A stretch of DNA of 62,651 nucleotides from Candidatus Magasanikbacteria bacterium CG1_02_32_51 (GTDB lineage Bacteria; Patescibacteriota; Patescibacteriia; Magasanikbacterales; UBA922): NCBI GenBank assembly GCA_001871435.1, contig MNVC01000012.1, forward strand, positions 1 to 62,651. The letters are read 5' to 3'. Made by a program: the position numbers and the translations under genes. Below, piece after piece: positions 11,477-59,481 of this stretch (positions are counted from its first letter, which is position 1; every line of letters starts with the position of its first letter). The notes under the pieces were generated by a model. That model worked only from the letters and a program-made list of their open reading frames with translations, ran no database searches and was not told the origin of the DNA.

Positions 11477-11508
11477 TTCCGCCCAAGGCGAATCCGCCTT
11501 GGGCGGAA
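11477..11508. terminator. Perfect 14-bp GC palindrome (family A-derived) between convergent genes; likely bidirectional terminator
   Basis: TTCCGCCCAAGGCG aatc CGCCTTGGGCGGAA, followed by AAAA. Confidence 0.6.
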
Positions 11509-12827: not shown

Positions 12828-12890
12828 ATAAAAAATGATAGTGGATTAAGTTATCATTATTATATCATATAACCATTGCCTATGTGAAGG

Positions 12891-13592
12891 TTATTCTGTG
12901 GAAAAAGCCATTTTGAATAATTTGTGATACTCTTTGCTTTCTTGTTTATTCAATTTATAATTGTGTTTGTCAGCAATAACCTGGGGGATAATGTCAAATA
13001 ACTCAAGAAGTGCATTTTTTCTTCCAGTTGTCATTTCATAAAAACTAACGCCATCAATTACTCTTATTTTGTTTTTTGCTGGACGTCTTTTTCCTTTTTC
13101 AGATGGTGTAAATGGTTTATCATATTTTTTTCTTCTTTTTGAGATTACTTCGACATAATAGCCAGTATAACCAGTATATTCATAATTTTTGAGAGTATTT
13201 TTTATGTCGTCATATAACTTTACTAAATGGTTTCCTTTTGTGGTGTTGTATTTATTTTTGACTTCAGCAATTATTTTCATTTTTTTATTTATGACATCTA
13301 AACCACCTCCTGTGCCAAGGTTTTTCCAACCAGAAATTGAACCTAAAATATCTTGGTGAAAATCACCTATAGAATTTTGCATTGTTTTTTGAGTTTGTCT
13401 AGCTTTTTCTTGTTCCATCCAATCTGTATAAGGTATAGATTTTGTAATTCCATGGAACAAAGCAGAAAATGGGTCTATTACATTTTTATGTATGTTGACT
13501 TCTGCATCCTGTTCAGCTTTTTCAATTACATTTATAACTTTACTAACAGCAGAAATTAAATTTTTGTCAGAAATAAATTTTAGGTAAGGCAT
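12891..13592 (-). CDS. Candidate type II restriction endonuclease (PD-(D/E)xK) partner of the m5C methyltransferase
   Basis: Directly upstream and co-oriented with the methyltransferase. GGGLDV...IIAEVKNKYNT fits D...ExK. A resemblance to the Eco47II/Sau96I family is recollection only and unverified. Confidence 0.5.
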   Translation of the reverse strand: MPYLKFISDKNLISAVSKVINVIEKAEQDAEVNIHKNVIDPFSALFHGITKSIPYTDWMEQEKARQTQKTMQNSIGDFHQDILGSISGWKNLGTGGGLDVINKKMKIIAEVKNKYNTTKGNHLVKLYDDIKNTLKNYEYTGYTGYYVEVISKRRKKYDKPFTPSEKGKRRPAKNKIRVIDGVSFYEMTTGRKNALLELFDIIPQVIADKHNYKLNKQESKEYHKLFKMAFSTE

Positions 13593-14532: not shown

Positions 14533-14546
14533 AAATTTTCTAGAAG

Positions 14547-14638
14547 GGTTCCCTCCTTGAGGAGGGGCAGGGAGGTGTTACCGTTTTGTAAGTAATTACG
14601 GTGGTAACACCCCCTTTATCCCCCTCGAGGGGGAAACC
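14547..14638. repeat. Family B GC-rich multi-hairpin element, copy 1
   Basis: CCCTCC/GGAGGG, GGGAGGTGTTACCG/CGGTGGTAACACCCCC and CCCCCTCGAGGGGG. Related copy at 28653-28767. Confidence 0.65.
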
Positions 14639-14690
14639 AAAAAATTATCTCAATTTATTATAAACTCATAAAAAATAATAGTTTGTCATT

Positions 14691-15881: not shown

Positions 15882-16130
15882 ATGAAAAAAGAAGCCAAGG
15901 AAGAATTTTTTGGCAACATACATGGTACCACCTCTGTTGGTGAAAGAGGACAATTAGTTATACCAAAGAAATTGCGCGAAAAATTAAAAATTAAAAAAGG
16001 TGACAATTTTGTAGTTGTCGAAAAGCATGGTATGGTAATTCTTATGCCAACCAAAGTCATGACTGATTTTATTTCCAAATTGAATCTTCAATTGAACAAT
16101 ATTAATCCGCCCAAGGCGGACAAGGTTTAA
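15882..16130 (+). CDS. AbrB/MazE/SpoVT-family DNA-binding protein (orphan antitoxin-like)
   Basis: GERGQLVIPKKLREKLKIKKGDNFVV swapped-hairpin motif. The last 9 codons and the stop lie inside the family A repeat. Confidence 0.7.
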   Translation: MKKEAKEEFFGNIHGTTSVGERGQLVIPKKLREKLKIKKGDNFVVVEKHGMVILMPTKVMTDFISKLNLQLNNINPPKADKV

Positions 16131-16230
16131 TTCCTCGTAGCTTGCTGCAAAATAATCCAATTGATACCTCGTCAGCTTCAGCCAGAGGACTGATCAGCCT
16201 AGGGCACGATGCTGTGCGAGGTAGTCCATT
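16104..16230. repeat. Family A long-form element, copy 1
   Basis: AATCCGCCCAAGGCGGACAAGGTTTAATTCCTCGTAGCTTGCTGC.AAATAATCCAATTGATACCTCG... matches 33607-33708 nearly base for base over the first ~70 nt. Confidence 0.8.
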
Positions 16231-16242
16231 AAAGAAAATAAT

Positions 16243-23099: not shown

Positions 23100-23195
23100 T
23101 AAAAGTTTTTAAAGTTCATAAAGTTTATAAAGTAATGTTTATTTTAGCATTTTTTGTACTTTTAACTTTCAACTTTACAAACTTTATAAACTAGG
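23100..23195. repeat. Family F element (AAAGTYYATAAAGT word repeats in inverted arrangement)
   Basis: AAGTTCATAAAGTTTATAAAGT ... ACTTTACAAACTTTATAAACT. Confidence 0.55.
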
Positions 23196-26624: not shown

Positions 26625-28598
26625 ATGGGAAAAATATTAGGAATAGATCTAGGAACAACCAACAGTTGTATGGCTATCATCGAAGGTGGTCAGCCAAAAG
26701 TACTAGAAAACAAAGAAGGAAATAGAACTACACCATCGGTAGTAGCAATTTCCAAAACAGGTGAGCGTCTTGTTGGTCAACTTGCCAAGCGTCAAGCTGT
26801 AACCAATCCAAGTAATACTCTTTATTCTATCAAGCGTCTGATTGGGCGTCGTTTTGAGGATAAAGAAGTACAAGATACTATCAAACATTCACCTTATACT
26901 ATTGTCAAAGATGGTGATAAATTGAAAATAAAAATGGGTGACAAAGAATATACTCCACCAGAAATTTCAGCCATGATTTTGCAAAAATTAAAAGCAGATG
27001 CTGAAGAAAAACTTGGTGAAAAAATAACTGAAGCTGTAATTACAGTTCCTGCTTATTTTGATGATTCACAAAGACAAGCTACTATTGCTGCTGGTGAAAT
27101 AGCTGGATTAAAAGTTGCTCGTATTATTAATGAGCCTACAGCAGCTGCTTTTGCTTATGGTTTTGACAAAAAAGGTGATCAACAAATTGTAGTTTATGAT
27201 TTGGGTGGTGGTACTTTTGATGTCTCTGTTTTGGAAATTTCTCATGATGGCGCACAATCTACAGTAGAAGTAAAAGCTACTAACGGTGATACACATCTTG
27301 GTGGTGATGACTTTGATAAAAAAATTATGGAATGGATTCTAGAAGAATTCAAAAAAACAGAAGGCATTAATCTTGGTAATGATCCATTATCATTACAACG
27401 TGTCAGAGACGCTGCTGAAAAAATAAAAATTGAATTATCAAGTACTGTAGATGGCGAAGTCAATGAACCATTTATTACTTCTGGTGTTGAAGGTCCAAAA
27501 CATTTAAGTTTGAAACTTAGTCGTGCTAGATTGGAAGAACTTGTGTCTGATCTTGTTGAAAGAACTATGGTTCCTCTTAGAAAAGCTCTTGAAGATGCTG
27601 GAATCAAAAAAGAAGATATTAATGAAGTAGTGCTAGTTGGTGGTATGACTCGTATGCCACTTGTACAACAAAGTGTTGAAAAATTTTTTGGTAAAAAACC
27701 ACATGTTGGTGTCAATCCAGACGAAGTGGTGGCTGTAGGTGCTGCTATTCAAGCTGGTCAACTTCAAGGTGACTTGGGCAAAGAAATTTTACTTCTTGAT
27801 GTCACTCCACTTTCTCTTGGTCTTGAAACTCTTGGTGGTGTATGTACAAAGCTTATAGATAGAAATACCACTATTCCAACAAGTAAAACTCAAGTATTTT
27901 CTACAGCAGCTGATAGTCAACCAAGCGTAGAAATTCATGTTTTGCAAGGTGAACGTGAAATGGCAGTTGATAACAAAGCATTGGGAACATTTATGCTTGA
28001 TGGAATTCCACCAGCTCCTCGTGGTATACCACAAATTGAAGTAAAATTTGATATTGATGCCAATGGAGTATTGCAAGTATCAGCCAAAGACAAAGGTACT
28101 GGTAAAGAACAATCAATTCGTATTGAAGCTTCCTCTGGACTTTCTGATGCAGATATAGAAAAAATGAAAAAAGACGCTGAAGCTCATGCTGATGAAGACA
28201 AGAAAAAACGTGAAATGATTGATATCAAAAATACAGCTGATACTATGATTTATACTACAGAAAAAATGATGAAAGATATTATTGAAAAGAAAATAGAAGT
28301 TACAGATGAAGAAAAGAAAAAAGTAGAGGAAGGTTTAACAAAATTAAAAGAAGTAAAAGAAAAAGATAATATTGAAGAAATTAAAAAAGTTGCTGATGAA
28401 TTGTCTACTGCAGCTCAAGCTATTGGTATGAAAATGTATCAACAAGAATCAGCCTCCGCTAAGGCTTCGGCTGACAAGCAAGGTGCTGGTACTGAGGAAG
28501 TTAAGACTGAAGAAAAGTCCGCCCAAGGCGGATCCGACTCGGTCGGAAAAGATGAAGGTGAATCTGTAGAAGGTGAAGTGGTTGATGATAAAAAATAA
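26625..28598 (+). CDS. dnaK: Molecular chaperone DnaK (Hsp70)
   Basis: [27 protein letters not shown] and so on. The C-terminal tail carries GC-hairpin repeat sequence. Confidence 0.98.
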
Positions 28599-28652
28599 TT
28601 TGTAAGCAGAATAGGCAAATTAAGCAGAATAGGCAGAATAAGTATAATTGAA

Positions 28653-28767
28653 TTTCCCTCCTCGAGAGCCTGTGCCGTACTTGATACGGTAAGGGATTAA
28701 GGGAGGTGTAACCGTCTTAGTAATATAAACATGGTAACACCATCTTGACCTCTCTCGAGGGAGGAAC
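28653..28767. repeat. Family B GC-rich multi-hairpin element, copy 2
   Basis: TTTCCCTCCTCGAG...GGGAGGTGTAACCGT...GGTAACACC...CTCTCGAGGGAGGAA. Shares termini and inner stem with 14547-14638. Confidence 0.65.
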
Positions 28768-28904
28768 TCACGAAAGTAAATAAACATCTTTGCCCTGTCT
28801 TGATTTTTGAGATGGGACAAATGGTTTGTTTAATTGAATATATTGTAGTAAAATGTAGACATATATTTTAGATGTTAGATATTAGAGAATGATTTTAAGT
28901 CCTG

Positions 28905-29545
28905 GAAGGACATGAAGATTTTAGGCTGGTACTTTAGTACCAGTAAAAAATGTAGTTTATGTAGTCCCAGAGGGACGATTGATGAAAATATGTCAGATAC
29001 TTTTTCAAAATTATTTTTTCATGTTGTTTTCAGTACCAAGGAAAGGATAAAATTTCTTAAACCAGATTTGAGAGTTAGACTCTTTGAATATATGGGTGGA
29101 ATAGCTAAAAATAATAATTTTCAAACAGTATTTACAAATGGTACAGATGACCATTTACACACATTATTATTATTGAAGCCAAATATAGCTGTATCAAAAG
29201 CTGTCCAGCTTTTGAAAGGTGGTTCTTCAAAATGGATACATGATAATTTTTTAGATTTGAAAATGTTTACTTGGTAGAGTGGTTTTGGTGCTTTTTCTGT
29301 TAGTCATTCCCAGGTTGAAAAAGTTATAGAATATATTTCAAAGCAGGAAGAACATCATAAAAAAATGGATTTTAAAGAGGAATACAAAAAACTATTGAAA
29401 ATAAATAATATAGATTATAAAGAACAATATTTATTTTAAACATGTAGTTCATTCGTCCCTCTGGGACTAAATATTATTATAATTTATATACGGGTACTGA
29501 AGTACCCGCCTAAATACTTATTGTCCCTCTGGGACTTGTTTATAG
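28905..29545 (+). mobile_element. IS200/IS605-superfamily Y1 (RAYT-like) unit with REP-like flanking hairpins
   Basis: 5' flank: CTGGTAC-ttta-GTACCAG and GTCCC-aga-GGGAC. 3' flank: GTCCC-tct-GGGAC (twice) and CGGGTAC-tgaa-GTACCCG, in inverted order around the HUH gene. Confidence 0.65.
28990..29439 (+). pseudogene. REP-associated tyrosine transposase (RAYT / IS200-like TnpA), inactivated
   Basis: FFHVVFSTKER, HUH motif DDHLHTLLL, KGGSSKWI. In-frame TAG at 29275-29277 falls where W-Q-x-G-Y-GAFS is expected (reads W-stop-S-G-F-GAFSVS). The frame continues to ...QEEHHKK...TAA 29437-29439. Confidence 0.7.
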
Positions 29546-29609: not shown

Positions 29610-30731
29610 ATGTCCAAAGATTATTACAAAATTCTTGGTGTAGACAAAGGCACTACTAAAGAAGAAATCAAAAAATCTTTTCGAAAATTAGCTCACGAAT
29701 ATCATCCAGACAAAAAGACTGGCAACGAAGATAAATTCAAAGAGATAAATGAAGCTTACCAAGTTTTGGGTGATGATAACAAACGCAAACAATATGATCA
29801 ATATGGAGCTGATTTTGAACAACAAGGTGGCTTTGGCGGTGGTATGAATTGGAATGACTTTATGAATAAAGCAAGGAGTGGTGACTTTGAAAATTTTTCT
29901 TCCCAAGGCGGATCAACTTGGAGCGAAGATGGAATTGATTTGGGAGATATCTTTGGTGACATTTTTGGTTTTGGTGGTGGAAGAAGTAGAGGAAGATCTC
30001 GTACTATGAGAGGAAATGATATTCAAGTTAGTGTGGAGTTGGAATTTCGTGAAGCAATTTTTGGTGTAGAAAAAGAAATAAGATTAACAAAAAATAATGT
30101 TTGTAGTGTCTGTAGTGGTAGTGGTGCTGAATCTGGAGCTGGTACAGAAACTTGTAGTGATTGTCGTGGTCAAGGACAAATAAAGAGAGTTCAACAAACA
30201 ATTCTTGGGGCAATGCAAAGTGTTGTGACTTGTCAGCGTTGTCAGGGTAGTGGTCAAATTCCAAAGAAAGTTTGTAAACATTGTAGTGGTAAAGGTGTAG
30301 TTCATAGTGATTCCAAATATAAAGTAAAGATTCCAGCGGGAATTTCAGATGGTGAAATGATTCGTTTGTCTGAAAAAGGGGAGAGTGCTGGAGTTGGTAG
30401 TAATCCTGGAGATCTCTATGTCCGTGTTCATGTAAAGTCTGAGAATGGTTTTGAAAGACAGGGTTTTGATATATTTACTGCTATTAACATTTCTTATCCA
30501 CAAGCTGTGTTAGGTGATAAAGTAGAGATAAATACGCTAGAAGGTAAAAAAAATTTGATTATACCAGAAGGTACCATCTCAGGACAAAAATTTAAACTAA
30601 AAGGTCTTGGTGTACCAAGACTACAGCGTAGTGGCAAAGGTGATCAATATGTGACAGTGATAATTGATGTCCCAAAGAAAATAAGTAAAAAAGTTAAAAA
30701 GATATTGGAAGAATTAAAAGGGGAATTGTAA
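29610..30731 (+). CDS. dnaJ: Co-chaperone DnaJ
   Basis: J-domain HPD (EYHPDK), G/F region, four CxxCxGxG zinc motifs. Confidence 0.96.
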   Translation: MSKDYYKILGVDKGTTKEEIKKSFRKLAHEYHPDKKTGNEDKFKEINEAYQVLGDDNKRKQYDQYGADFEQQGGFGGGMNWNDFMNKARSGDFENFSSQGGSTWSEDGIDLGDIFGDIFGFGGGRSRGRSRTMRGNDIQVSVELEFREAIFGVEKEIRLTKNNVCSVCSGSGAESGAGTETCSDCRGQGQIKRVQQTILGAMQSVVTCQRCQGSGQIPKKVCKHCSGKGVVHSDSKYKVKIPAGISDGEMIRLSEKGESAGVGSNPGDLYVRVHVKSENGFERQGFDIFTAINISYPQAVLGDKVEINTLEGKKNLIIPEGTISGQKFKLKGLGVPRLQRSGKGDQYVTVIIDVPKKISKKVKKILEELKGEL

Positions 30732-33543: not shown

Positions 33544-33745
33544 ATCCTGAGCCGACGAAGTACGGCGTGAGGATCTTTCTCAAATAAAAACGTTTTTTAT
33601 TTATTTAATCCGCCCAAGGCGGACAAGGTTTAATTCCTCGTAGCTTGCTGCGAAATAATCCAATTGATACCTCGTAGCAAGCTGACGAGGTAGTTCATTT
33701 TTTTAGACGTGGTTATTCGTTTTCAATATATATATCTATTTATGT
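33544..33745. repeat. Family C element, copy 3, with a family A long-form element (33607-33708) nested inside
   Basis: ATCCTGAGCCGACGAAG...GAGGATCTTTCTCAAATAAAAACGTTTTTTATTTATTTAAT, then the A element, then TTTTAGACGTGGTTATTCGTTTTCAATATATATAT. In copy 1 the two halves are contiguous. Confidence 0.7.
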
Positions 33746-36281: not shown

Positions 36282-36887
36282 GTGTCAGACAACTATCGTG
36301 AGCAGGCTTTGGCTTTGTTCAAGGAAGGAGATATAGTAACCTTCAATGTTTTGTGCGAAGAACTTGAAGATCAATTACTAAATCTCAGCAAAGGAAAGAT
36401 CACTGTTGAGACCTTCCAGTCCTTCTTCAAGAATCCCAACAAGTTTTTCGAGGAGAATGGTTTTCCAGTCTCGATCAACTATACAATGTTGCTCGAGGAT
36501 ATGATCAAGGTCGGTTGCTATGACTGGTGGGATGAGCACATCACATCCAGGAATTTCCAGTTCATCGGCGAGGGTGTTGTGAATATGAGGCTCCATCTTG
36601 TATGCTTCATGCTCGCGGCCACGACCAAGAGGATCAAGAATCATCTCGATTCTCTCGGTCTCAAGCCAGCGAAGCTCGAGCATCTTCTTGCATTCGGGTC
36701 AAAATACCCGATTAGCCAACGGAACTTCCCAATTATTGCTTTTGGCTCTAGTTGGGTTGACCACGACGGTATTCAGACCTTTCCCTGCCTCGACGAGAAT
36801 AAAGTCAAACGTCGTCTTGTTTTGGGTTACGACTGGCCTGACCGTGAATGGGGTAGCTTCTGTCGGTTCCTCGCGTTCAGCAAGTAG
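36282..36887 (+). CDS. Hypothetical 201-aa protein, GC-rich cassette 3
   Basis: GTG start with GAGGG 6 nt upstream and TTGACA at 36220-36225. G/C-rich codons; long shadow ORFs on both strands. No motif recognised. Confidence 0.5.
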   Translation: MSDNYREQALALFKEGDIVTFNVLCEELEDQLLNLSKGKITVETFQSFFKNPNKFFEENGFPVSINYTMLLEDMIKVGCYDWWDEHITSRNFQFIGEGVVNMRLHLVCFMLAATTKRIKNHLDSLGLKPAKLEHLLAFGSKYPISQRNFPIIAFGSSWVDHDGIQTFPCLDENKVKRRLVLGYDWPDREWGSFCRFLAFSK

Positions 36888-36922
36888 CGCTTGGATCCAT
36901 CAGAGTGATATTACTGACATTA

Positions 36923-36983
36923 GGCCGACACGCACTATGCGTAGTCGGCCAAAACTTAAAAAACACGAACTAATCGTGTTTTT
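36923..36983. terminator. Two hairpins after cassette 3; the second is a bidirectional terminator shared with murJ
   Basis: GGCCGACACGCA cta TGCGTAGTCGGCC, then AACACGA acta aTCGTGTT followed by TTTT. Confidence 0.6.
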
Positions 36984-37000
36984 TAATTTGAAAATATTTT

Positions 37001-38608
37001 TTAAATATTATTATTTATACCTGTATCCACATTGCGCAATTTGAGCCAACGTTTCTTGAAACTTTCATGAAAAAGATGCATTTCTCTTAATTTCAATTGA
37101 TGACAAATAAAGCCATAAATCAGGAGACCTATAGTAGCAGAGATAGATACTTGAAGCAAGACGCCCCAGAATCTATCCATATCCACAATTGAAGATAACA
37201 AAACTTTGAAAGTTTGTATAAAGATAGCCATAATAATAGCCGCTATACTTATTTTTAAGACGGAAATAAATATTTTTTTCTCTTGCAATGTACCAAGTTT
37301 GTTTCTAAGTAACAACCAGAGAAGTCCAAATTGAAAAATCATAGTTATTGAATAAGCAAATATCAAACCCAAAATACCATAATTGGTTGACAGATAGACT
37401 GCTAAAATAATGTTGATAATTGTCGAAATAATACTTATTATGAGTGGGGTCATAGTATCTTGTAAGGCATAAAAAGAACGAGATAATATTGGAATAAGAC
37501 TCTGAGCAAAAAGTGAAATAGCAAAAATACCAAGTGCGTTGAAAGTAAGTCTAGTAGCATCCCAGTCAAATTCTCCAGTACCCAAAATAACACGGACAAT
37601 TTGTGCACGAAGCATTATTAAAATAATTGTTAGAGGAATAATGAGGAAAAATATTTGTTTGATTGTTTCTGAAATGTGTTTGATCATTTTTTTATTTTCT
37701 TTATTGGTTGCCATTTGAGATAGGGCTGGGAAAATAGCAATCGCGAAAGAAATTCCAATAATACTAGTTGGTACCGATTGGATGTTGTCTGCAAAATTGA
37801 AAATAGATAAACTGCCAGATGATAGGGTAGAAGCAATAATAGTGATAGCCAAAAAATTTATTTGCAAAGTGGCCATACCTAGAGTCCTAGGTAACATTAG
37901 TTTGAAAATTTTACGAACGTTTTTGTTTTTCCAGTCAAAGATGGCTTGATATTTGAATCCATGTTGGATAAATGCTGGAATTTGGATTAGTAAGTGAAAT
38001 AAAGCTCCTAGTACCACGCCCATTGCTAGACCTTGGTTTCCAAAAATTGGAACCAAAAATAAAGCACCAATGATGATGCCAAGGTTGTACATGATAGGAG
38101 ATAGAGAATATATAAGAAAAGCCTTGAAAGATTGGAGAACACCACTGACAATACTACTAATGCCAAGTAATATGGGACTGACAAACATTATTCTGCTTAA
38201 CATTACTGTCAACTGAAATTTGTCACCAGAAAAACCAGGTACAAGAAGTTTCAAGAATTGTGGTGTAAAAAAAATCAAAATAGTACAACTAACAATTAGA
38301 AGTATTCCTAAAATATTTATCATGGTATTGGTGACTTTCCAAGCTTCTTTTTTGTCTTTGTTTAGTAGTTCTAAAAAAATAGGTATAAATCCTGCAGATA
38401 GGGCACCAACAATTAACAAATTAAAGACAAGATCTGGAATTTTGAAAGCAGCATAATAAGCATCCATAACATCGCCAGCTCCGAAATAGTGTGCAAAAAT
38501 ACGATCACGAGCTAGAGCAATTATTTTACTTACAAAAGACGCAGTACCAATGACAATAGTTGCACCTGTAATAGTATATGATTTTTTACTAAGAATTTTT
38601 TCAATCAT
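37001..38608 (-). CDS. murJ: Lipid II flippase MurJ (MviN)
   Basis: 14-TM MOP-superfamily profile. N-terminal SRI.G..RD...A..FGAG...DAYY.AF..P pattern. Confidence 0.85.
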   Translation of the reverse strand: MIEKILSKKSYTITGATIVIGTASFVSKIIALARDRIFAHYFGAGDVMDAYYAAFKIPDLVFNLLIVGALSAGFIPIFLELLNKDKKEAWKVTNTMINILGILLIVSCTILIFFTPQFLKLLVPGFSGDKFQLTVMLSRIMFVSPILLGISSIVSGVLQSFKAFLIYSLSPIMYNLGIIIGALFLVPIFGNQGLAMGVVLGALFHLLIQIPAFIQHGFKYQAIFDWKNKNVRKIFKLMLPRTLGMATLQINFLAITIIASTLSSGSLSIFNFADNIQSVPTSIIGISFAIAIFPALSQMATNKENKKMIKHISETIKQIFFLIIPLTIILIMLRAQIVRVILGTGEFDWDATRLTFNALGIFAISLFAQSLIPILSRSFYALQDTMTPLIISIISTIINIILAVYLSTNYGILGLIFAYSITMIFQFGLLWLLLRNKLGTLQEKKIFISVLKISIAAIIMAIFIQTFKVLLSSIVDMDRFWGVLLQVSISATIGLLIYGFICHQLKLREMHLFHESFKKRWLKLRNVDTGINNNI

Positions 38609-40269: not shown

Positions 40270-40392
40270 TTAGTCAAAAGTCCATAACGTCAAAAGTTCT
40301 TAAAGTTAAAAGTCTATAAAGTCGTAATCGTAAAAATATTACATTTTTATATAATGACTTTATACTTTATGGACTTTATAGACTTTCGACTA
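40270..40392. repeat. Family F element, large inverted copy
   Basis: TAGTCAAAAGTCCATAA...AAAAGTCTATAAAGTC ... GACTTTATACTTTATGGACTTTATAGACTTTCGACTA. Confidence 0.6.
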
Positions 40393-40464: not shown

Positions 40465-41820
40465 ATGAAGATACACTTTAGTGGAGCAGATGGTGAAGTT
40501 ACAGGTTCTTGTCATCTTTTGGATACTGGCAAAATGAAAATTCTTATTGATTGTGGAATGTTTCAAGGTGGAGATTTCAATGAAGGACTTAATCATGATG
40601 TCTTTCCTTTTGATCCAAAGGAAATTGATGTACTCTTGGTAACTCATGCTCATTTGGATCATATTGGACGTATTCCAAAACTTGTCAAAGATGGTTTTGG
40701 TGGCAAAATTTATGCTATCAAAGGTACAAAAGACTTGATGCCACTTATTTGGTATGATGCCTACAATATTATGGCTTATGATAATCGTAAATTTGGTTAT
40801 CCTGTGTTATTTGACGAAGTAGATGTGGCTGAAGCTCAAGCTCTTTGTCATGGACTAAATTATCATGAGGAATTGGATCTTGGTAATGGTGTCAAAGCTA
40901 TTTGGAAAGATGCTGGCCATATTTTTGGTTCAGCTTTTATTGAAATTACTGTAGGTGACAAGAAATTTGTTTTTTCCGGAGATATTGGTAATGAAAATGT
41001 TCCAATTTTGAAAAATACTGAAAGTATTAGTCCAGATGTGGACTATGTTATTTGTGAATCTACTTATGGTAATCGTATCCATGAAGGTACTGATGTTAGA
41101 AAGAATATTATATCTAATTTAATAATAAATAGTGTCAAAAGAGGAGGTACAATTATGGTGCCAGCTTTTTCTCTTGAACGTACACAAGAATTTCTTTATG
41201 AATTGAACGAAATCAGTGAATATGATCATAATTTGCCAAATGTGCCTATTTTTCTTGATAGTCCTTTAGCAATTGATGCTACCAAAGTTTACAAAAAATA
41301 TCCAGAATATTATGATGAAGAAGCCCAAAAGTTGCATCTAGATGGTGATGATTTTCTCAATTTTCCTCAGCTTCAAGTGACTTATGGTAAAAGAGATTCA
41401 CAAAAAATAAATCATACTCCAGGTCCAAAAATGGTGATTGCTGGTGCTGGTATGATGAATGGTGGTAGAATATTGCATCATGCTCTAAGATATTTGTCTG
41501 ATCCCAATTCTACTCTTATTATTGTTGGTTACCAGGCTTATGGTACTTTGGGTCGAAAAATTTATGAAGGTCAAAAACATGTCAAAGTAATGGGAGAAGA
41601 TGTTGAGGTTAGGTGTACTATCAAAGCTATTGGTGCTTTGTCTGCTCATGGTGATCAAATTAAATTATTAAAATGGTTGGGTACTGACAAAAAAAGATTA
41701 AAAAAAGTATTTTGTGTACATGGTGAAGATGACGCTCTGACAGTTTTTGCTGGTAAAATAAAAAGCGATTTGAAAATAGAGGCTTATATACCAAAGTATG
41801 GTGAAGTGGTGGAAGTATAA
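40465..41820 (+). CDS. MBL-fold beta-CASP family ribonuclease (RNase J/CPSF-like)
   Basis: HAHLDHIG motif 2, beta-CASP motifs, C-terminal SAHGD and VHGE. Confidence 0.8.
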   Translation: MKIHFSGADGEVTGSCHLLDTGKMKILIDCGMFQGGDFNEGLNHDVFPFDPKEIDVLLVTHAHLDHIGRIPKLVKDGFGGKIYAIKGTKDLMPLIWYDAYNIMAYDNRKFGYPVLFDEVDVAEAQALCHGLNYHEELDLGNGVKAIWKDAGHIFGSAFIEITVGDKKFVFSGDIGNENVPILKNTESISPDVDYVICESTYGNRIHEGTDVRKNIISNLIINSVKRGGTIMVPAFSLERTQEFLYELNEISEYDHNLPNVPIFLDSPLAIDATKVYKKYPEYYDEEAQKLHLDGDDFLNFPQLQVTYGKRDSQKINHTPGPKMVIAGAGMMNGGRILHHALRYLSDPNSTLIIVGYQAYGTLGRKIYEGQKHVKVMGEDVEVRCTIKAIGALSAHGDQIKLLKWLGTDKKRLKKVFCVHGEDDALTVFAGKIKSDLKIEAYIPKYGEVVEV

Positions 41821-41830
41821 TTTTTTTGAA

Positions 41831-44236
41831 ATGGATAAACATAAATTCAAATTAAAATCCAAATATAAACCAGCAGGATCTCAGCCTGAAGCTATAAAAG
41901 GTTTAGTTTTTGGTTTACAAAAAGATTATAAGAATCAAACCTTACTTGGTGTGACTGGCTCAGGTAAGACTTTTACAGTAGCTAATGTAATTGAAAAAGT
42001 TCAAATGCCAACATTAGTGATTGCTCACAATAAGACTCTTGCAGCTCAACTTTGCAATGAGTTTCGGGAATTCTTCCCAGATAATGCTGTGGAATATTTT
42101 GTGTCATATTATGATTACTATCAGCCTGAAGCATATATGCCAGGCAGTGATACTTATATTGAAAAAGAAGCCCAGATAAATGAAGAAATAGATAGGCTCC
42201 GTCATGCTTGTACACAAGCTTTGATTACTCGTAGTGACGTGATTGTAGTAGCTTCTGTTTCGGCAATTTACAATCTTGGTAATCCATTAGATTATGAAAA
42301 AACAGTTTTACATCTTGAAGTCGGACAAAATTTGGATAGACGAGGGATGCTTGAAAAACTTGTTTCTATGCAATTTGATAGAAATAATACAGAGTTGAAG
42401 AGAGGACAATTCCGGATGCGTGGGCAAGTCTTTGAAATAATGCCAGTCAATGAAGAATTGATTTATCGTTTTGAAATTAGTGATAAAATTGATTTGATAG
42501 AAATAGTAGATCCTATTACAAGAAATATTTTGAGTAGTTCAACAAGAGGTTCTTCGACTTCCACTTCGCTTCGCTCAGGGTCGCTCAGGACAAACGTTCT
42601 TTCAGACGTTTGGTTTTTCCCAGCTAAGCATTATGTAATAAATGAAAATGAACAGTTGCAAGCTTTTTCAACTATTGAAAATGAACTAAAAGATAGGTTA
42701 GAATTTTTTAAAAAACATAGTAAGGCTCTAGAATATGAAAGATTGAAAAGAAAAGTAAAATATGATTTGGAAATGATCAAAGAAGTTGGTTATTGTAGTG
42801 GTATAGAAAATTATTCTCGCCATTTTGATGGACGTAAAGAAGGTGAACCGGCTTTTACTTTGATTGATTATTTCAAATATGCTGCCGGGACCTCACCAGC
42901 TTCGTCTGGGTCGGAGTCGACCTCTCCTAATAGGAGAGGTGCTGACGTTGTCAAAAACAAGGGATTTCTTACCATCATAGATGAGTCACACGTTACTTTG
43001 CCACAAATTCGTGGTATGTATTTTGGAGATAAGGCTCGTAAAGAAAATTTGATAGAACATGGCTTTAGATTACCAAGTGCTTTGGATAATCGTCCACTTA
43101 TTTTTGATGAATTTATTAATAGAACCCAAAAAACTATTTTTGTGTCTGCTACTCCCGCAGAATATGAAATTAAAAATAGTGGTCAAGTCGTGGAACAAAT
43201 TGTTCGTCCAACTGGACTAATTGATCCAGAAATTATTATTTGTTCAGTGACTGGTGGCAAAGTTCTCCCCCTAGTAGGGGGAGTTACCCTCCCAAGGCGG
43301 GTCCGCCTAGGGTGGAGAGGGGGTCTGCAAGCAAATGAAAACGTTGTAACTCAAGATGGACCCCTCCCAACCTCCCCTAATAGGGGAGGAGTTTCTAGGT
43401 CACAAGTTGAGGATGTCATGGAGCGTATCCAAGTTAGAGTGAAGCAAGGTGAGCGTACTTTGGTTACAACACTAACAAAACGCATGGCAGAAGATTTGAG
43501 TGACTATCTAAAAGAACAAAAAATAAAAGTTGAATATCTGCATAGTGATATCAAGACAATTGAAAGAATTGAAATTATAACCAAACTTCGCAAAGGTGAA
43601 ATAGATGTAATTGTTGGTGTCAATTTGCTTCGTGAAGGTCTGGACATTCCAGAAGTATCTCTCGTGGCAATTCTTGATGCTGACAAAGAGGGTTTTTTAC
43701 GTAATGAGACAAGTCTAGTCCAGACTATTGGTCGGGCCGCACGTAATGTCAATGGTCAAGTAGTAATGTATGCTGATGAAATGACGAAGTCTATTGATAG
43801 GGCTGTTTTTGAGACCCAGAGACGTCGTGAGATTCAGTTGGCTTATAATAAAAAACATAATATTACTCCAAAAACTATTGAAAAAAATATCCGTAATATT
43901 TTGGAAGAATTTGGTCTCACTAGTACAAGTATCAAAAATACCAAAACAAAAAGTAACAGACGTGATAGGAGTATTTTGAATCTAGATATTATGGGAGATG
44001 CTAGACCTCTCAAAGAAATAATTAAAGAAAAAGAATTCAAGATGCGTGAAGCTGCAACAAAATTGGAATTTGAATTAGCTGCTTTATTGCGTGATGAAGT
44101 TAGAGAATTAAAAGCTAGAGAGAAGACGGGGGATAGTCGGAAGTCTGGGAAGTCCATTCCACCAAAGGTGGACTCGTCTACGCGAGAAAGTCGAAAGTCA
44201 CAAAAGCTAAAAAGTAAAATTGTTAAATATTTATAA
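41831..44236 (+). CDS. uvrB: Excinuclease ABC subunit B, with four GC-rich repeat-derived insertions
   Basis: GVTGSGKTFT, DESHVT.PQ, helicase motifs, UVR domain (AA..LEFE.AA.LRDE). About 130 aa longer than typical UvrB. Confidence 0.96.
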   Translation: MDKHKFKLKSKYKPAGSQPEAIKGLVFGLQKDYKNQTLLGVTGSGKTFTVANVIEKVQMPTLVIAHNKTLAAQLCNEFREFFPDNAVEYFVSYYDYYQPEAYMPGSDTYIEKEAQINEEIDRLRHACTQALITRSDVIVVASVSAIYNLGNPLDYEKTVLHLEVGQNLDRRGMLEKLVSMQFDRNNTELKRGQFRMRGQVFEIMPVNEELIYRFEISDKIDLIEIVDPITRNILSSSTRGSSTSTSLRSGSLRTNVLSDVWFFPAKHYVINENEQLQAFSTIENELKDRLEFFKKHSKALEYERLKRKVKYDLEMIKEVGYCSGIENYSRHFDGRKEGEPAFTLIDYFKYAAGTSPASSGSESTSPNRRGADVVKNKGFLTIIDESHVTLPQIRGMYFGDKARKENLIEHGFRLPSALDNRPLIFDEFINRTQKTIFVSATPAEYEIKNSGQVVEQIVRPTGLIDPEIIICSVTGGKVLPLVGGVTLPRRVRLGWRGGLQANENVVTQDGPLPTSPNRGGVSRSQVEDVMERIQVRVKQGERTLVTTLTKRMAEDLSDYLKEQKIKVEYLHSDIKTIERIEIITKLRKGEIDVIVGVNLLREGLDIPEVSLVAILDADKEGFLRNETSLVQTIGRAARNVNGQVVMYADEMTKSIDRAVFETQRRREIQLAYNKKHNITPKTIEKNIRNILEEFGLTSTSIKNTKTKSNRRDRSILNLDIMGDARPLKEIIKEKEFKMREAATKLEFELAALLRDEVRELKAREKTGDSRKSGKSIPPKVDSSTRESRKSQKLKSKIVKYL

Positions 44237-44237
44237 A

Positions 44238-44320
44238 TCATTGTACCATTGCCCTATTGTCCCATTGTCCCATTGTGGTTTTCAATTTGTCAGTTGGGCA
44301 ATAAAACAATGGAACAATAA
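44238..44320 (+). repeat. Family H element (CCATTGT words), copy 1
   Basis: CCCATTGTCCCATTGTGGTTTTCAATTTGTCAG...ACAATGGAACAATA. The reverse complement of 53795-53868 matches closely. Confidence 0.7.
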
Positions 44321-44347
44321 AAAACCGGTTAAGATAACCGGCTTTTG
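44319..44347. terminator. Bidirectional terminator between uvrB and hup
   Basis: AAAAAA CCGGTT aagat AACCGG cTTTTGTTTT. Confidence 0.65.
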
Positions 44348-44377
44348 TTTTATAATAAATTTTTTTAAAGAAAACAA

Positions 44378-44656
44378 TTATTTCTTCAAAGCATCTTTCA
44401 ATCCTTTTCCAGCTTTAAATTTTGGAACAGTGACTGAAGGGATTTGAATTTTTTGACTTGGTTTCTGTGGGTTTACACCTATGCGTCCAGCACGTACTTT
44501 GGCACTGAAAGCTCCAAAACCTGAGATAGTGACTTCGTCACCACTCTGTAAAGTTTTGATTACAATTTCTACAAAAGAGGCAAGTATATTTTCTGCTTCT
44601 TTTTTGGATATACCAACTTGCTCAGCGATTTTTTGAGCCAATAACGCTTTGTTCAT
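44378..44656 (-). CDS. hup: HU-family DNA-binding protein
   Basis: MNKA.L...IAE....SKKEAE......GFG.F....RAGR.G.NP.....I.IP HU pattern. Confidence 0.92.
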   Translation of the reverse strand: MNKALLAQKIAEQVGISKKEAENILASFVEIVIKTLQSGDEVTISGFGAFSAKVRAGRIGVNPQKPSQKIQIPSVTVPKFKAGKGLKDALKK

Positions 44657-48708: not shown

Positions 48709-51030
48709 ATGTCCTATAATTTATTAGACAAAGCTGACTTCGAAAAATTCAAGAAAAATAATCCAAGTAATTTTCAATACGATTTTGAAGGCGGAAGTTA
48801 TTTGAAATTACAAGATTTGGAATTGAATGGTTTGTCAGGAATTGATGAAGAAAAGCTAAATAAAATTGCTACACTCATGCGTGAACTTATTTTTGCCACA
48901 GTAGAAGGTTCTCGTTCGGGTCATCCTGGTGGCTCTAGTGCCAAAGTAGAGCAGTTTTTGGCGATGACTCTTGGTGGAGCAATGGCTTTTGATTTATTAG
49001 ATCCAAAAAATAATTGTCGTGATAGAGTGGTTTGGTCAGCTGGGCATTGTACACCGGGATTGTATAGTGGGTTGGCTTTGTTTTATGAGAGTTTGCAAAA
49101 AAAAGGAATAAAATTTGATGTCAAAAAATTGCATGCAATTTTAGGCAAAGATTTGAGTAAGTTCAGAAAAGGTGGGGGACTTCCAGGTCATGCTGAAAGT
49201 TATACACCTCTTAGTGATATTTCTACAGGTCCTTCTGGACATGGTTTTTCGGCTGCTGGTGGATTAGCTATCACCCATAAGTCGTCTGGTACAGGTAGTA
49301 AAGTTTGGGTTTTTATGGGTGATGCCGAGAGTGAAGAAGGTATGACTTATGAGGCTCGCAATATTTTACATACTGTTGGCGCTGATAATATGATAGTATC
49401 ACTTGATTACAATCATTTTGGGATTGATGGAGATATAGATGAAGTATTGTCAAATAAATATATCAACAATTGGTTAGGTTTGGGCTGGAACGTAATTGAA
49501 ATAAATGGACATAATATTTTGGAATGTGTTTATGCTTATCGTTTGACTTCGGAAAAAGTTTTTGCTAATGGTAATCCGACTGTAGTTATTGCTCATACTT
49601 GGAAAGGAAAGTCTTATGGTAGTCTAGAAAATTCCAATAAATCTCATGGTTCTCAGGTTAAGCACGATGAATATATAGAGATTGAAAATAAATTAAACGC
49701 AAATAATAAAGTATCAATTCCAGGTAAAGAAGGAGATATTTTATCAGATATTGAAAGTATTTTATCTAATCTGGATAATTCTTTGGCAACTTATATTGTA
49801 GGTAGACTAAAGGTGGCTAGCAAAAAAATTCCAAATGAACAAAAAGTTTTGGTACAAATGAAAAAGACTTTGAAATTTGTCAAAGGCGGATCTACGAGAA
49901 AATTTAAGAGTGTTACGGAAATTGAAAGACCAAGTAAATTACCAGCAGAATTAGTTTTTGTACCAGAGCAAAAAGTTGCTACAAGAAAGTCTAGTCAAGT
50001 ATTTTTTGAATGGTTGATGAAAGAAAGTGCGTTTTTTTGGGCTGGGGCTGGGGATTTGTCAGAATCAGTCAAGACTGACAAGGCCGAAAATGTGTATGGT
50101 GTTATAAATAGAAAAAATCCTTATGGGCGTGGGATTCGTTATGGTATTGCTGAACAAAATATGGGGATGATGGGCGCTGGTATGACACTAGATAGATTAC
50201 CTGGGAATTTTGCACCAGTTTCTGTCATAGGAACTTATGCCGCATTTACTTCTATGATGTGCAATGGTATTCGTGTGGCTGTCATAAATAATCATCTTTA
50301 TCCTGAACATAAAGGATTTTTTATAGTACTTGCTAGTCATGATGGTCCAGAAGTTGGAGAAGATGGACCGACTCATCAAGGACTTTATTGGATGAGTATG
50401 TATAGTGCCTATCCGGGTATAAAAGTTTACAAGCCAACTGATGCCAATGAAACAATTGAAATGCTTTTTTATGCCATGAAAATTGGTGAACCAATTATTT
50501 TGTCTGTTTCTCGTCCTGATGTACTAGTACTCAAACGTGGTAAGAATGCTTGTTGTGGACAATTCGTCCCACAAGCAAAAGAAGCTGTACAAGGTGCTTA
50601 TATTTTCAAAGATTACAAAAATAATGGTAATAATAAAATGTGTGTGGCAGTTTCTGGCGCAATTGTTTTGAATAATTTGTTGCAAATATTACCAGACTTA
50701 GAAAAAGAAAAAATAGATATCAAAGTTGTGGTAGTGACTTCACCAGAATTGTTTGCAGAATTCAAAAAGAAAAACAAGAAAAAAGCAGATAGTATTTTTT
50801 CTAAAGAAGATAGAAAAGTAGGAGTAACTCTTCATGCTGGTTGGAAAGGTTTTTTGCGTGATTTTGTTGATAATGATTTTTATTCCGCCAAAGGCGGATC
50901 CGCCTCGGGCGGAGAAGAACGATCTATTGGTCTAGAAACATATTTGGCAAGTGGCAGTGTGGATGAAGTCTATGAAATGGCGAAATTGACATCTTTGGAT
51001 ATTAAGAAGAAAATTTTAGAAATAAAATAG
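48709..51030 (+). CDS. tkt: Transketolase (long form), with a repeat-derived insertion near the C-terminus
   Basis: SGHPGGS, GPSGHG, GDAESEEG (TPP-binding GDG-like), EDGPTHQ. Confidence 0.9.
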   Translation: MSYNLLDKADFEKFKKNNPSNFQYDFEGGSYLKLQDLELNGLSGIDEEKLNKIATLMRELIFATVEGSRSGHPGGSSAKVEQFLAMTLGGAMAFDLLDPKNNCRDRVVWSAGHCTPGLYSGLALFYESLQKKGIKFDVKKLHAILGKDLSKFRKGGGLPGHAESYTPLSDISTGPSGHGFSAAGGLAITHKSSGTGSKVWVFMGDAESEEGMTYEARNILHTVGADNMIVSLDYNHFGIDGDIDEVLSNKYINNWLGLGWNVIEINGHNILECVYAYRLTSEKVFANGNPTVVIAHTWKGKSYGSLENSNKSHGSQVKHDEYIEIENKLNANNKVSIPGKEGDILSDIESILSNLDNSLATYIVGRLKVASKKIPNEQKVLVQMKKTLKFVKGGSTRKFKSVTEIERPSKLPAELVFVPEQKVATRKSSQVFFEWLMKESAFFWAGAGDLSESVKTDKAENVYGVINRKNPYGRGIRYGIAEQNMGMMGAGMTLDRLPGNFAPVSVIGTYAAFTSMMCNGIRVAVINNHLYPEHKGFFIVLASHDGPEVGEDGPTHQGLYWMSMYSAYPGIKVYKPTDANETIEMLFYAMKIGEPIILSVSRPDVLVLKRGKNACCGQFVPQAKEAVQGAYIFKDYKNNGNNKMCVAVSGAIVLNNLLQILPDLEKEKIDIKVVVVTSPELFAEFKKKNKKKADSIFSKEDRKVGVTLHAGWKGFLRDFVDNDFYSAKGGSASGGEERSIGLETYLASGSVDEVYEMAKLTSLDIKKKILEIK

Positions 51031-59296: not shown

Positions 59297-59316
59297 AAAG
59301 TTATATGATTTTAAGT

Positions 59317-59427
59317 GGAGTGACGAATTCCTGCCTGCCGGCAGGCAGGGAATGTGTAACAATGAAATTCGTTGGTCACGCGATAACGAAATTTCCCGCC
59401 CACCTGGCGGGTCATTTCGTCATTCCT
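59317..59427. repeat. Family D element, copy 2, with an extra GC palindrome
   Basis: GGAGTGACGAATTCC, CTGCCTGCCGGCAGGCAG, GGGAATGTG...AACGAAATTTCCCGCCCACCTGGCGGG, TCATTTCGTCATTCCT. Confidence 0.6.
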
Positions 59428-59481
59428 CTCCTATAATAGTTAAGGATTTGTTGTGTAAATATTATAGCAGTGTTTATTATA

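Follow-up and report, generated by a model that had tools for sequence, protein, structure and literature searches.

GC-rich, in-frame insertions in the uvrB gene of a Candidatus Magasanikbacteria genome and their resemblance to palindromic repeats

The uvrB gene and its inserted segments

The window analysed here is the whole of a 62,651-nucleotide stretch (62.6 kb, 32.7% GC) of contig MNVC01000012.1 from Candidatus Magasanikbacteria bacterium CG1_02_32_51, and the gene of interest is its uvrB, which encodes the DNA repair helicase UvrB. The named relatives of the protein are Candidatus Magasanikbacteria, members of the Candidate Phyla Radiation (CPR, or Patescibacteria). A sequence-only reading of the window had proposed that this gene carries four GC-rich, hairpin-rich insertions, all of them preserving the reading frame. 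The mechanically defined open reading frame (ORF; 41798-44236, + strand) runs into the upstream gene, and the start codon given in Table 1 is the probable true one; relatives begin at the equivalent of 41840 (M.FKLKS). The protein matched solved UvrB chains (E = 8.6e-226) and contained the Pfam domains ResIII, UvrB_inter, Helicase_C, UvrB, and UVR, with both the UvrA-interaction domain 2 (PF17757, aa 160-236) and the C-terminal, UvrC-binding UVR domain (PF02151, aa 728-762) found.

The protein has a superfamily-2 helicase core with Walker A (GSGKT), DESH, and motifs III, V, and VI; these and the beta-hairpin YYDYYQPEAY were invariant across alignment A2, which comprised 117 of the closest UvrB homologues. 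The ORF contained no internal stops, dN/dS outside the inserts was 0.054-0.064 for the window compared to four relatives, and an identical 812-aa product (P0001) has been recorded from a separate 21-kb ENA contig. Because the UvrB motifs are all intact and core dN/dS is approximately 0.055, the gene is evidently functional. The extra segments are true insertions in an otherwise canonical UvrB. Stops, motifs, and dN/dS gave no sign of the decay that the sequence-only reading had considered for this copy, and its remark that a DNA repair helicase tolerates such insertions agrees with these values and with the structure model described below.

When aligned to solved UvrBs, the protein fell into three blocks with breaks at query aa ~233-252, 349-376, and 476-522 (sites 1, 2, and 3), and the alignment stopped at aa ~763 of 801, leaving ~38 residues past the UVR domain. 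Net extra length in a DNA alignment with four close relatives was +60 nt at site 1, +66 nt at site 2, and +126 nt at site 3 (+20, +22, and +42 aa), the last figure counting a nested 30-nt piece. The sites are 27, 30, and 49 residues long in the window, and the commonest lengths among the 117 homologues are 7, 6, and 6-8 residues. These lengths indicate a base state of 7, 6, and 6-8 aa, so that the polarity is one of insertion. Every internal length change was divisible by 3, including independent nested inserts of 30 and 33 nt and a 3-nt indel. GC content was 0.54-0.57 in the four segments vs. 0.327 in the window, as had been claimed. Preservation of the frame held for the three internal segments and failed for the fourth, which is a frameshifted tail.

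An AlphaFold2 model built on A2 had 358 residues with pLDDT >=90, a core mostly above 90, and target-normalised TM-scores of 0.82-0.90 for the core against solved UvrBs. Five segments had pLDDT <50, all of them coil; four were inserted parts (aa 241-254, 357-364, 482-520, and 769-788), and the fifth (aa 700-710) lay outside the inserts. The question had been raised whether the segments fall in surface loops, and in the model they are low-confidence coil. Insertion 1 takes the place of a turn at site 1, in the final beta-hairpin of domain 2. At site 2 the insert follows a helix and precedes the beginning of the strand ending in DESH, and site 3 is the linker joining the two RecA-like domains. 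Two of the segments had been described as near catalytic motifs, which is correct for the linear sequence; in space, RecA-fold topology and the secondary structure of the model suggest that the inserts sit away from the ATP site.

The three internal insertions differed in structure, and the description "hairpin-rich" fits only part of them. Insertion 3 was the sole clearly structured one (fold z = -2.43), insertion 2 had one strong hairpin (z = -1.34), and insertion 1 was not hairpin-rich (z = -0.44). Insertion 1 holds CTTCGCTTCGCTCAGG (42564-42579) plus a 10-nt duplicate, and its sequence resembles a decayed half of a widespread ...CTTCGCTNCGCTCAGGATGACA palindrome that is read as "SLRMT/SLRTNV" peptides. 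Insertion 2 holds the perfect hairpin ACCTCTCC-TAATA-GGAGAGGT (42920-42940), the relatives designated L001 and L003 carry a second hairpin of this kind, and its edges in the window, GCC...GCC, are ambiguous as a duplication. Insertion 3 is 147 nt long and in frame, with inverted ends of ~31 nt. Its order is a left hairpin (43265-43283, CTCCCCCT-nnn-AGGGGGAG), an arm, a spacer, an arm, and a right hairpin (43371-43389, CCTCCCCT-nnn-AGGGGAGG). The long-range arms GAGGGGGTC (43317-43325) and GGACCCCTCC (43358-43367) flank an AT-rich spacer, with the arms also read as GGAGGGGGTC before and GGACCCCNCC after the variable spacer. To judge from this order, the build is like that of a REPIN (a pair of inverted repetitive extragenic palindromes, or REPs) or a MITE, a miniature transposable element with inverted repeats.

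The palindromes reported at 42920-42940, 43265-43283, and 43371-43389 are perfect. Only 5 perfect GC-rich hairpins in the 62.6 kb have a stem of >=8 bp (block shuffles: mean 0.08, maximum 2), and these are 3 of them. A fourth, of 35 nt (43287-43321), is imperfect and consists of two decayed 15-nt units. These belong to a repeat designated family A, described below. The nested 30-nt doublet in insertion 3 had an exact, clean empty site in L001 (GGGGGAGTTA|GAGGGGG) with no target duplication, and another relative, L002, had a different insert, of 33 nt, at the same point. Searches of Rfam gave no match at the gathering threshold in the whole window and, in a relaxed search of 42400-44400, only chance-level matches far under the cut-offs. 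There were no tRNA or tmRNA genes in the window.

The C-terminal extension that had been reported is present past the UVR domain, but it does not keep the ancestral frame to its end. Its upstream part (REKTGDSRKS...) is in the frame of the relatives. The tail is interrupted by a family A unit, TCCACC-AAA-GGTGGA (44158-44172), whose stem has changed in a compensatory way. In the window the last ~16 codons are out of the relatives' frame, so that their ending (...KSKV.K.KK*; stop TAA, 44215-44217) is not read and the uvrB ORF continues to a stop at 44234-44236. The fourth segment is a variable, frameshifted tail behind an intact UVR domain. Short tandem 8-9-mers arranged as inverted repeats were also found at gene ends, at 44237-44325, 40304-40391, and 23113-23192 (CATTGTCC x3 ... 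ACAATGG, TATAAAGTC-type, and CATAAAGTT-type), and the AAAGTC repeat among them also codes the Lys/Ser UvrB tail in the clade.

Table 1. Coordinates in the window of uvrB, its inserted segments, and copies of the family A repeat
Feature	Position	Strand	Remarks
uvrB coding sequence	41831..44236	+	Probable true start ATG 41831
Insertion 1	42530..42609	+	Site 1; NILSSSTRGSSTSTSLRSGSLRTNVLS in place of the 7-aa turn; net +60 nt
Insertion 2	42884..42949	+	Site 2, loop before the DESH strand; 66 nt, 69 nt in L001 and L003
Insertion 3	43253..43399	+	Site 3, linker between RecA-like domains; 49 codons vs. ~7
Nested family A doublet in insertion 3	43287..43316	+	CCCTCCCAAGGCGGG + TCCGCCTAGGGTGGA, read TLPRRVRLGW; degenerate
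C-terminal tail after UVR domain	44117..44236	+	AAAGTC short-repeat tract, Lys/Ser, variable
Family A doublet in transketolase C-terminal domain	50884..50913	+	In frame, SAKGGSASGG
Family A doublet in DnaK C-terminal tail	28518..28547	+	In frame; compensatory stem change in second unit
Intergenic family A doublet	11478..11507	.	Flanking genes convergent; perfect stem of 14 bp
Intergenic single family A unit	16106..16120	+	Second copy, 33609-33623, heads the same longer repeat
DnaJ G/F region near-unit	29898-29912		Single family A near-unit

Gain, loss, and rate of change among relatives

Among the 117 homologues, 18 had an extended site 1, 35 an extended site 2, and 45 an extended site 3, and length at these sites varied in 21-45% of the set. 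REPs in repair genes are known (PMC3733652), and the earlier impression that the insertions are exceptional was not supported. On a neighbour-joining tree built from the core columns, the extended states required at least 12 changes for the 18 taxa at site 1, 21 for the 35 at site 2, and 33 for the 45 at site 3. Alignment of orthologs, which had been recommended for indel polarity, supported insertion: the closest relative, L005, with a core third-position identity to the window of 0.72, was without all three inserts. The more distant L001-L003 (0.61-0.64) carried insertion 2 in L001 and L003 and insertion 3 in L001 and L002. Insertion 2 was present in the window, L001, L003, and L128 and was missing in L002, L005, and L129-L132. 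Insertion 1 was missing in all seven closest relatives (P0002-P0007 among these), and its LRTN type (…SLRTNV…) occurred in nine scattered distant homologues, requiring 10 changes for 10 taxa. The GC-rich ends of insertion 3 were kept in 8 uvrB genes down to ~64-71% protein identity, with a spacer that varied in sequence and length, and L132 held only the right half. At the same sites in other CPR UvrBs the translations included SAAGGSASGG, SPxRGG, LPLxGG, PPLxKGRG, VILSEAK, HPERSEGS, and SLRMTN. Contigs bearing insertions 2 and 3 came also from other samples and studies. These alignments indicate that the three sites are natural length-variable loops of the lineage, in which inserts are gained and lost.

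Identity of insertions 2 and 3 to relatives was flat over codon positions. Pooled dN/dS of the inserts was 1.07, and dS was 0.11 compared to 1.05 in the core (~10-fold lower silent divergence). In every pair the inserts were more conserved than the flanking third-codon positions. Insertion 3 was 94.7% identical between L001 and L002, vs. 82.1% at core third positions (p = 2.7e-4), and insertion 2 was 98.5% identical between L001 and L003, vs. 74.9% (p = 3.7e-7). Hairpin stems were stable, and loops and spacers diverged. Since dN/dS is ~1 and the inserts change more slowly than silent sites, these data indicate that it is the nucleic acid, and not the protein, that is constrained or homogenised.

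At the level of sequence, these comparisons demonstrate that the inserts are dispersed repeated modules gained and lost between close relatives, that purifying selection on UvrB is strong, and that the inserts lack codon-level constraint. The same insert type recurs in the same loop and frame in scattered lineages, and the inserts exceed silent-site conservation 3- to 10-fold; on this evidence, neither simple vertical descent nor random insertion accounts for both. Simple import of insertions 2 and 3 by recombination from an L001-like donor was considered and rejected. Identity was not raised beside the inserts, which makes a large import unlikely; very short conversion tracts may have occurred. 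Recent insertion as the whole cause of the low divergence was also rejected, since the inserts surpass silent sites in the L001-L002 and L001-L003 pairs as well, where vertical descent is simplest.

The family A repeat within and beyond the window

Family A is built from a hairpin unit of 15 nt, TCCGCC-NNN-GGCGGA, and two units often join around GGATCC into a 30-nt doublet. The claim that insertion 3 contains the core of this family was borne out (43287-43316). Allowing <=2 mismatches, there were 13 units in the window vs. 0.25 expected. Some lay between genes, and the others were in the DnaK tail, the G/F region of DnaJ, transketolase, the UvrB tail, and the piece nested in insertion 3. The transketolase doublet was missing in 9 of 9 relatives aligned, one of them 88% identical; because it has no counterpart in the nine, this copy is read as a clean, recent 30-nt insertion with no duplication. 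A search of solved structures with the transketolase C-terminal fragment gave no match, and the homologue alignment was used in its place. The predicted translations around insert junctions are SPNRRGADV, LPLVGGVTLPRR, and, for transketolase, SAKGGSASGG. Among the other modules, insertion 3 shares its right hairpin and the adjoining flank with a Portnoybacteria intergenic region and with >120 metagenome contigs, and a ACCTCCCCT-N2-3-AGGGGAGG hairpin is common in metagenome contigs (32-70% GC).

Outside this genome, the doublet TCCGCC-nnA-GGCGGATCCGCC-Tnn-GGCGGA occurred with identical stems at more than 120 genome loci, a minimum that, like the other doublet counts in this paragraph, refers to the matches listed. 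Examples among loci L006-L125 are L037:4624-4653, L014:4756-4785, and L034:6021-6050. The phyla included many CPR lineages, Omnitrophota, Kiritimatiellae, Ignavibacteriota, Planctomycetes, Chloroflexota, and others. In 128 copies the 5' flank was T-rich (85% T at -2) and the 3' flank A-rich (78% A at +2), giving TTT...AAA; the loops followed nnA and Tnn, and 24 of the 128 were perfect 30-nt palindromes. Of 126 copies, 80 lay inside ORFs of >=150 aa, and 69 of these 80 were in the frame SAxGGSAxGG, a bias which indicates that the copies are translated and have been filtered by selection on the peptide. Stem changes were Watson-Crick compensatory in 21 of the 75 family A units with two stem mismatches. 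The doublets often neighboured short tandem repeats (AAAGTC, AAGATT, ACAGCCT) or CCCCCT/AGGGGG inverted repeats. A scan of viral contigs for the 30-nt doublet found it in only 2, which argues that the doublet is not phage-borne.

The 15-nt TCCGCC-nnA-GGCGGA unit and its 30-nt inverted doublet could, as a tentative suggestion, constitute an undescribed tiny mobile or self-propagating element. The basis for this suggestion is the sharing of identical stems by many bacterial phyla, entry at T-rich|A-rich steps without target duplication, a whole-codon length, and presence in housekeeping proteins mainly as SAxGGSAxGG. Both family A and the CCTCCCC/GGGGAGG hairpins are kept more tightly than silent sites at orthologous positions and reappear at the same loops in scattered lineages. 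Taken together, such a pattern would suggest site-directed re-insertion or structure-templated repair, by machinery that would be new. No description of intragenic repeats of this kind in CPR, or of the cross-phylum 30-nt doublet or any machinery mobilising it, was found in the searchable literature, which is absence of evidence only. Queries for CPR with palindromic, REP, or RAYT (REP-associated tyrosine transposase) returned nothing specific, and queries with sequence strings returned only cloning primers.

Two further observations concern the surroundings of family A copies. One doublet lies directly beyond the 3' end of a C5 cytosine methylase (PF00145, MerR-like N-terminus) that adjoins an Eco47II-family endonuclease (PF09553), the two forming a type II restriction-modification pair (11577-13592, - strand). 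A longer intergenic repeat, present as two copies (16103-16231 and 33606-33703), starts with a family A unit (ATCCGCCCAAGGCGGACAAGGTTTAATTCCTCGTAGCTTGCTGC.AAATAATCCAATTGATACCTCGT...CGAGGTAGT.CAT). The copies are identical over ~70 nt save one base and differ in internal hairpin lengths, and the second ends in a T-run. Rfam gave no match for either copy; the repeat could be a small RNA or a mobile repeat.

Origin of the insertions and comparison with known repeats

The explanation that we consider probable is that the extra segments are GC-rich palindromic repeats of the REP, REPIN, or Rickettsia palindromic element (RPE) type, which were inserted in uvrB, survived where harmless, and are translated as disordered loops. 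Such repeats would land at many places and be kept only in three surface loops or linkers and in the tail after the UVR domain. Survivors would be those with a length divisible by three and a stop-free, benign frame, which would then be transcribed and translated as disordered loops. The repeats would be copied or moved as DNA hairpins, with a Y1/HUH-type transposase acting in trans, or hairpin-driven replication or repair errors, as candidates. The inserts would change slowly because the hairpin, as DNA or RNA, is constrained or homogenised, and not the peptide.

The only Y1 transposase gene in the window is of IS200 type and lies between dnaK and dnaJ (28912-29439, + strand; also delimited as 28990-29439). 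It matched PF01797 (E = 5.6e-19) and the IS200 family NF033573 (68.9 bits) and scored 23.5 bits for the RAYT family NF047646, vs. a cut-off of 80; the window held no RAYT. The gene has an in-frame TAG (29275-29277) and reads FGAFS where related IS200-type proteins have GYGAFS, so that a Phe stands at the place expected for the catalytic Tyr. Because of the TAG and this Phe, the gene is probably a pseudogene. Around it lie GTCCC-NNN-GGGAC hairpins (28964-28976, 29455-29467, 29491-29508, and 29523-29535), the upstream one preceded by GTAG. Two related intergenic elements (14536-14640 and 28640-28790) have inverted ends TTCCCTCCT.GAG...CTCGAGGG.G.AA and a core GGGAGGTGT.ACCGT...GGTAACACC and look like MITEs; one of them is directly downstream of dnaK, beside this IS200 remnant.

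Several points weigh against the inserted-repeat explanation. No mobilising enzyme was identified: the Y1 gene described above is the only one in the window, and its hairpins are other than family A. A Y1 gene was nearby in 1 of 120 other loci, and tblastn with the window Y1 against all loci gave one further match (L071) that is compatible with chance. Family A does not carry the GTAG or CGTC tag of classical REPs, and its flanks are TTT...AAA; in the CTCCCC/GGGGAG hairpins, GTAG occurs only inside some loops. No target-site duplication was seen, with two filled vs. empty comparisons for family A. Full copies of the four inserts occurred nowhere else in the 62.6-kb window or in 125 loci, only their hairpin modules. 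That the inserts are translated is something we infer. Alleles exchanged by recombination could also explain why scattered lineages have one element type at one site and in one frame, and change slower than at silent sites could reflect a host function instead of selfish persistence.

A host function of this kind, in which the hairpins are kept as nucleic acid and the peptide is a by-product, is unlikely but accounts for part of the data. The hairpins might give the mRNA a structure that serves uvrB stability or translation at domain boundaries, or they might be a DNA uptake, binding, or topology signal. Insert change 3- to 10-fold slower than at flanking silent sites with no codon periodicity, compensatory stem changes, GC-rich stems that last in a 33% GC genome among uvrB genes of 64-71% protein identity as spacers diverge, the position of all three sites at domain junctions, and doublet stems identical over phyla would all be expected. 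However, L005 and most homologues have no insert at all, presence is scattered on the tree, and the same units occur in unrelated genes and intergenic DNA. There was no Rfam family match, and the T-run upstream and A-run downstream on both strands are in the wrong orientation for an intrinsic terminator.

It is quite improbable that the segments are lineage-specific functional protein loops, for instance for CPR-specific partners or for tuning of UvrA, UvrC, or DNA binding. The loops do occupy domain 2, which binds UvrA, the linker between domains, and a place beside the UvrC-binding UVR domain, and SPxRGG and LPLxGG recur at the same sites in several homologues. Yet dN/dS of the inserts is ~1, and the recurrent peptides are fully accounted for by conserved DNA hairpins, of which copies in other frames and outside genes exist. 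The segments are also predicted to be disordered and are lacking in close relatives.

Removal of the segments before the protein is complete, as introns, inteins, or by translational bypass, has very little in its favour. GC-rich, strongly folded inserts in an AT-rich gene do recall mitochondrial bypass elements and GC clusters, and CPR rRNA genes carry excised insertions. However, the internal inserts keep the frame and avoid the frame in which loops would read TAA or TAG, and the 69 of 80 bias of family A toward one frame in other genomes only makes sense with translation of the copies. Neither an intron nor a ribozyme of Rfam matched, and an intein would be larger than the segments (20-49 aa, low-complexity, with neither intein blocks nor an in-frame stop). 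All three forms of removal were rejected for reasons of size, open frames, and the bias in frame among translated copies. An assembly artefact or a decaying pseudogene, suggested by the metagenome-assembled source and by a tail frameshifted relative to relatives, is hardly credible and was rejected in view of the independent contigs (the identical product on a separate contig, and insertions 2 and 3 in those of other samples and studies), the invariant motifs, the lack of internal stops, and the dN/dS of 0.055.

The inserted-repeat explanation has precedents. In-frame palindromic repeats in housekeeping genes of Rickettsia were described as RPEs (Ogata et al. 2000, per a review, PMC10969869). 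The uvrB segments are like RPEs in being in frame, in housekeeping genes of a small AT-rich genome, as extra fold-compatible loops that are present or absent between relatives. Insertion 3 (~117-147 nt, inverted ends) is of RPE size (~100-150 bp), whereas insertions 1 and 2 are shorter (60-66 nt). The host is CPR, the elements are modular 15-19-nt GC-rich hairpins, and several unrelated families occur in one gene. RPEs have many whole copies per genome; in the 62.6-kb window and the other loci it was hairpin modules that recurred, and not the full inserts. Given the difference in host clade, homology is unlikely.

Intragenic REPs of the GTAG and CGTC super-families, 20-40-nt stem-loops found in frame as single units or inverted dimers, were described by Di Nocera et al. 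2013 (PMC3733652). The authors noted an excess in replication and repair genes, namely uvrA (O. terrae, Thioalkalivibrio), uvrC, uvrD, polA, and dnaE2, with dual inserts in both O. terrae uvrA genes and, in RC0550, a uvrB homologue of R. conorii, two REPs that are single (aa 537-545 and 761-769). The CGTC-1 translations in that work (VIPAKAGI, SFPRKRES, CHSRESGNP, and ...AGMT) resemble the peptides VIPTEAKRS, CHSRVGGNP, and SLRMTN at the CPR UvrB hot spots. The units here are also short GC-rich stem-loops, of 15-19 nt with 6-8-bp stems, and the family A doublets and the inverted pair of insertion 3 correspond to the dimer form. Unlike REPs, family A has no GTAG/CGTC tag and no cognate RAYT in the window, and its stems are the same over many phyla and not species- or genus-specific. 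In-frame palindromic repeats in DNA-repair genes are therefore already described; what differs here is a new host clade and more inserts than usual.

REPINs with their RAYTs (Bertels and Rainey 2011, PMC3116915) are nearly all extragenic and depend on a RAYT gene that is present once and has these repeats on its flanks. Insertion 3 shares with REPINs an inverted hairpin pair around a less conserved spacer, singlet decay products (compare the half copy in L132), and long persistence, but the window has a single Y1 gene, probably a pseudogene of IS200 type, and its hairpins are different. The inverted ends of insertion 3 also recall MITEs, and no duplication was seen in the two filled and empty pairs for family A. 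The GC clusters and bypass elements of yeast mitochondria are GC-rich hairpins in AT-rich organelle genomes. Sponge repetitive hairpin elements (PMC2800124) and the coding palindromes of Nematomorpha (PMC6649704) are likewise organellar. These organelle systems are similar in that GC-rich or perfect palindromes invade AT-rich genomes, including coding sequence, with the frame kept. They differ in being organellar, with some elements bypassed and not translated, and there is no evidence of relatedness.

If the segments are inserted repeats, "selfish DNA inside protein-coding genes", best known from Rickettsia, reaches CPR with small AT-rich genomes and the same gene class, nucleotide excision repair. 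Such repeats would inflate and distort CPR protein sequences and seed spurious "conserved" motifs in databases (SAxGG, SPxRGG, SLRMT...). They would also mark permissive UvrB loops of use for protein engineering. Inserts conserved as nucleic acid and neutral as protein, with turnover at three fixed loops, offer a tractable case for hairpin copying and upkeep.

Elsewhere in the window, two islands of 43-45% GC (901-2018 and 36282-37044) stand out from the 33% GC background. Their ORFs (916-1611, 1713-2018, and 36282-36887) had no Pfam match, and the islands may be foreign DNA. A GC-rich hairpin cluster at 59310-59435, between two minus-strand genes, contains CCTGCCTG-CCGG-CAGGCAGG and CCCGCC-CACCT-GGCGGG and is edged by the inverted repeats GTGACGAAT.../...ATTTCGTCA.

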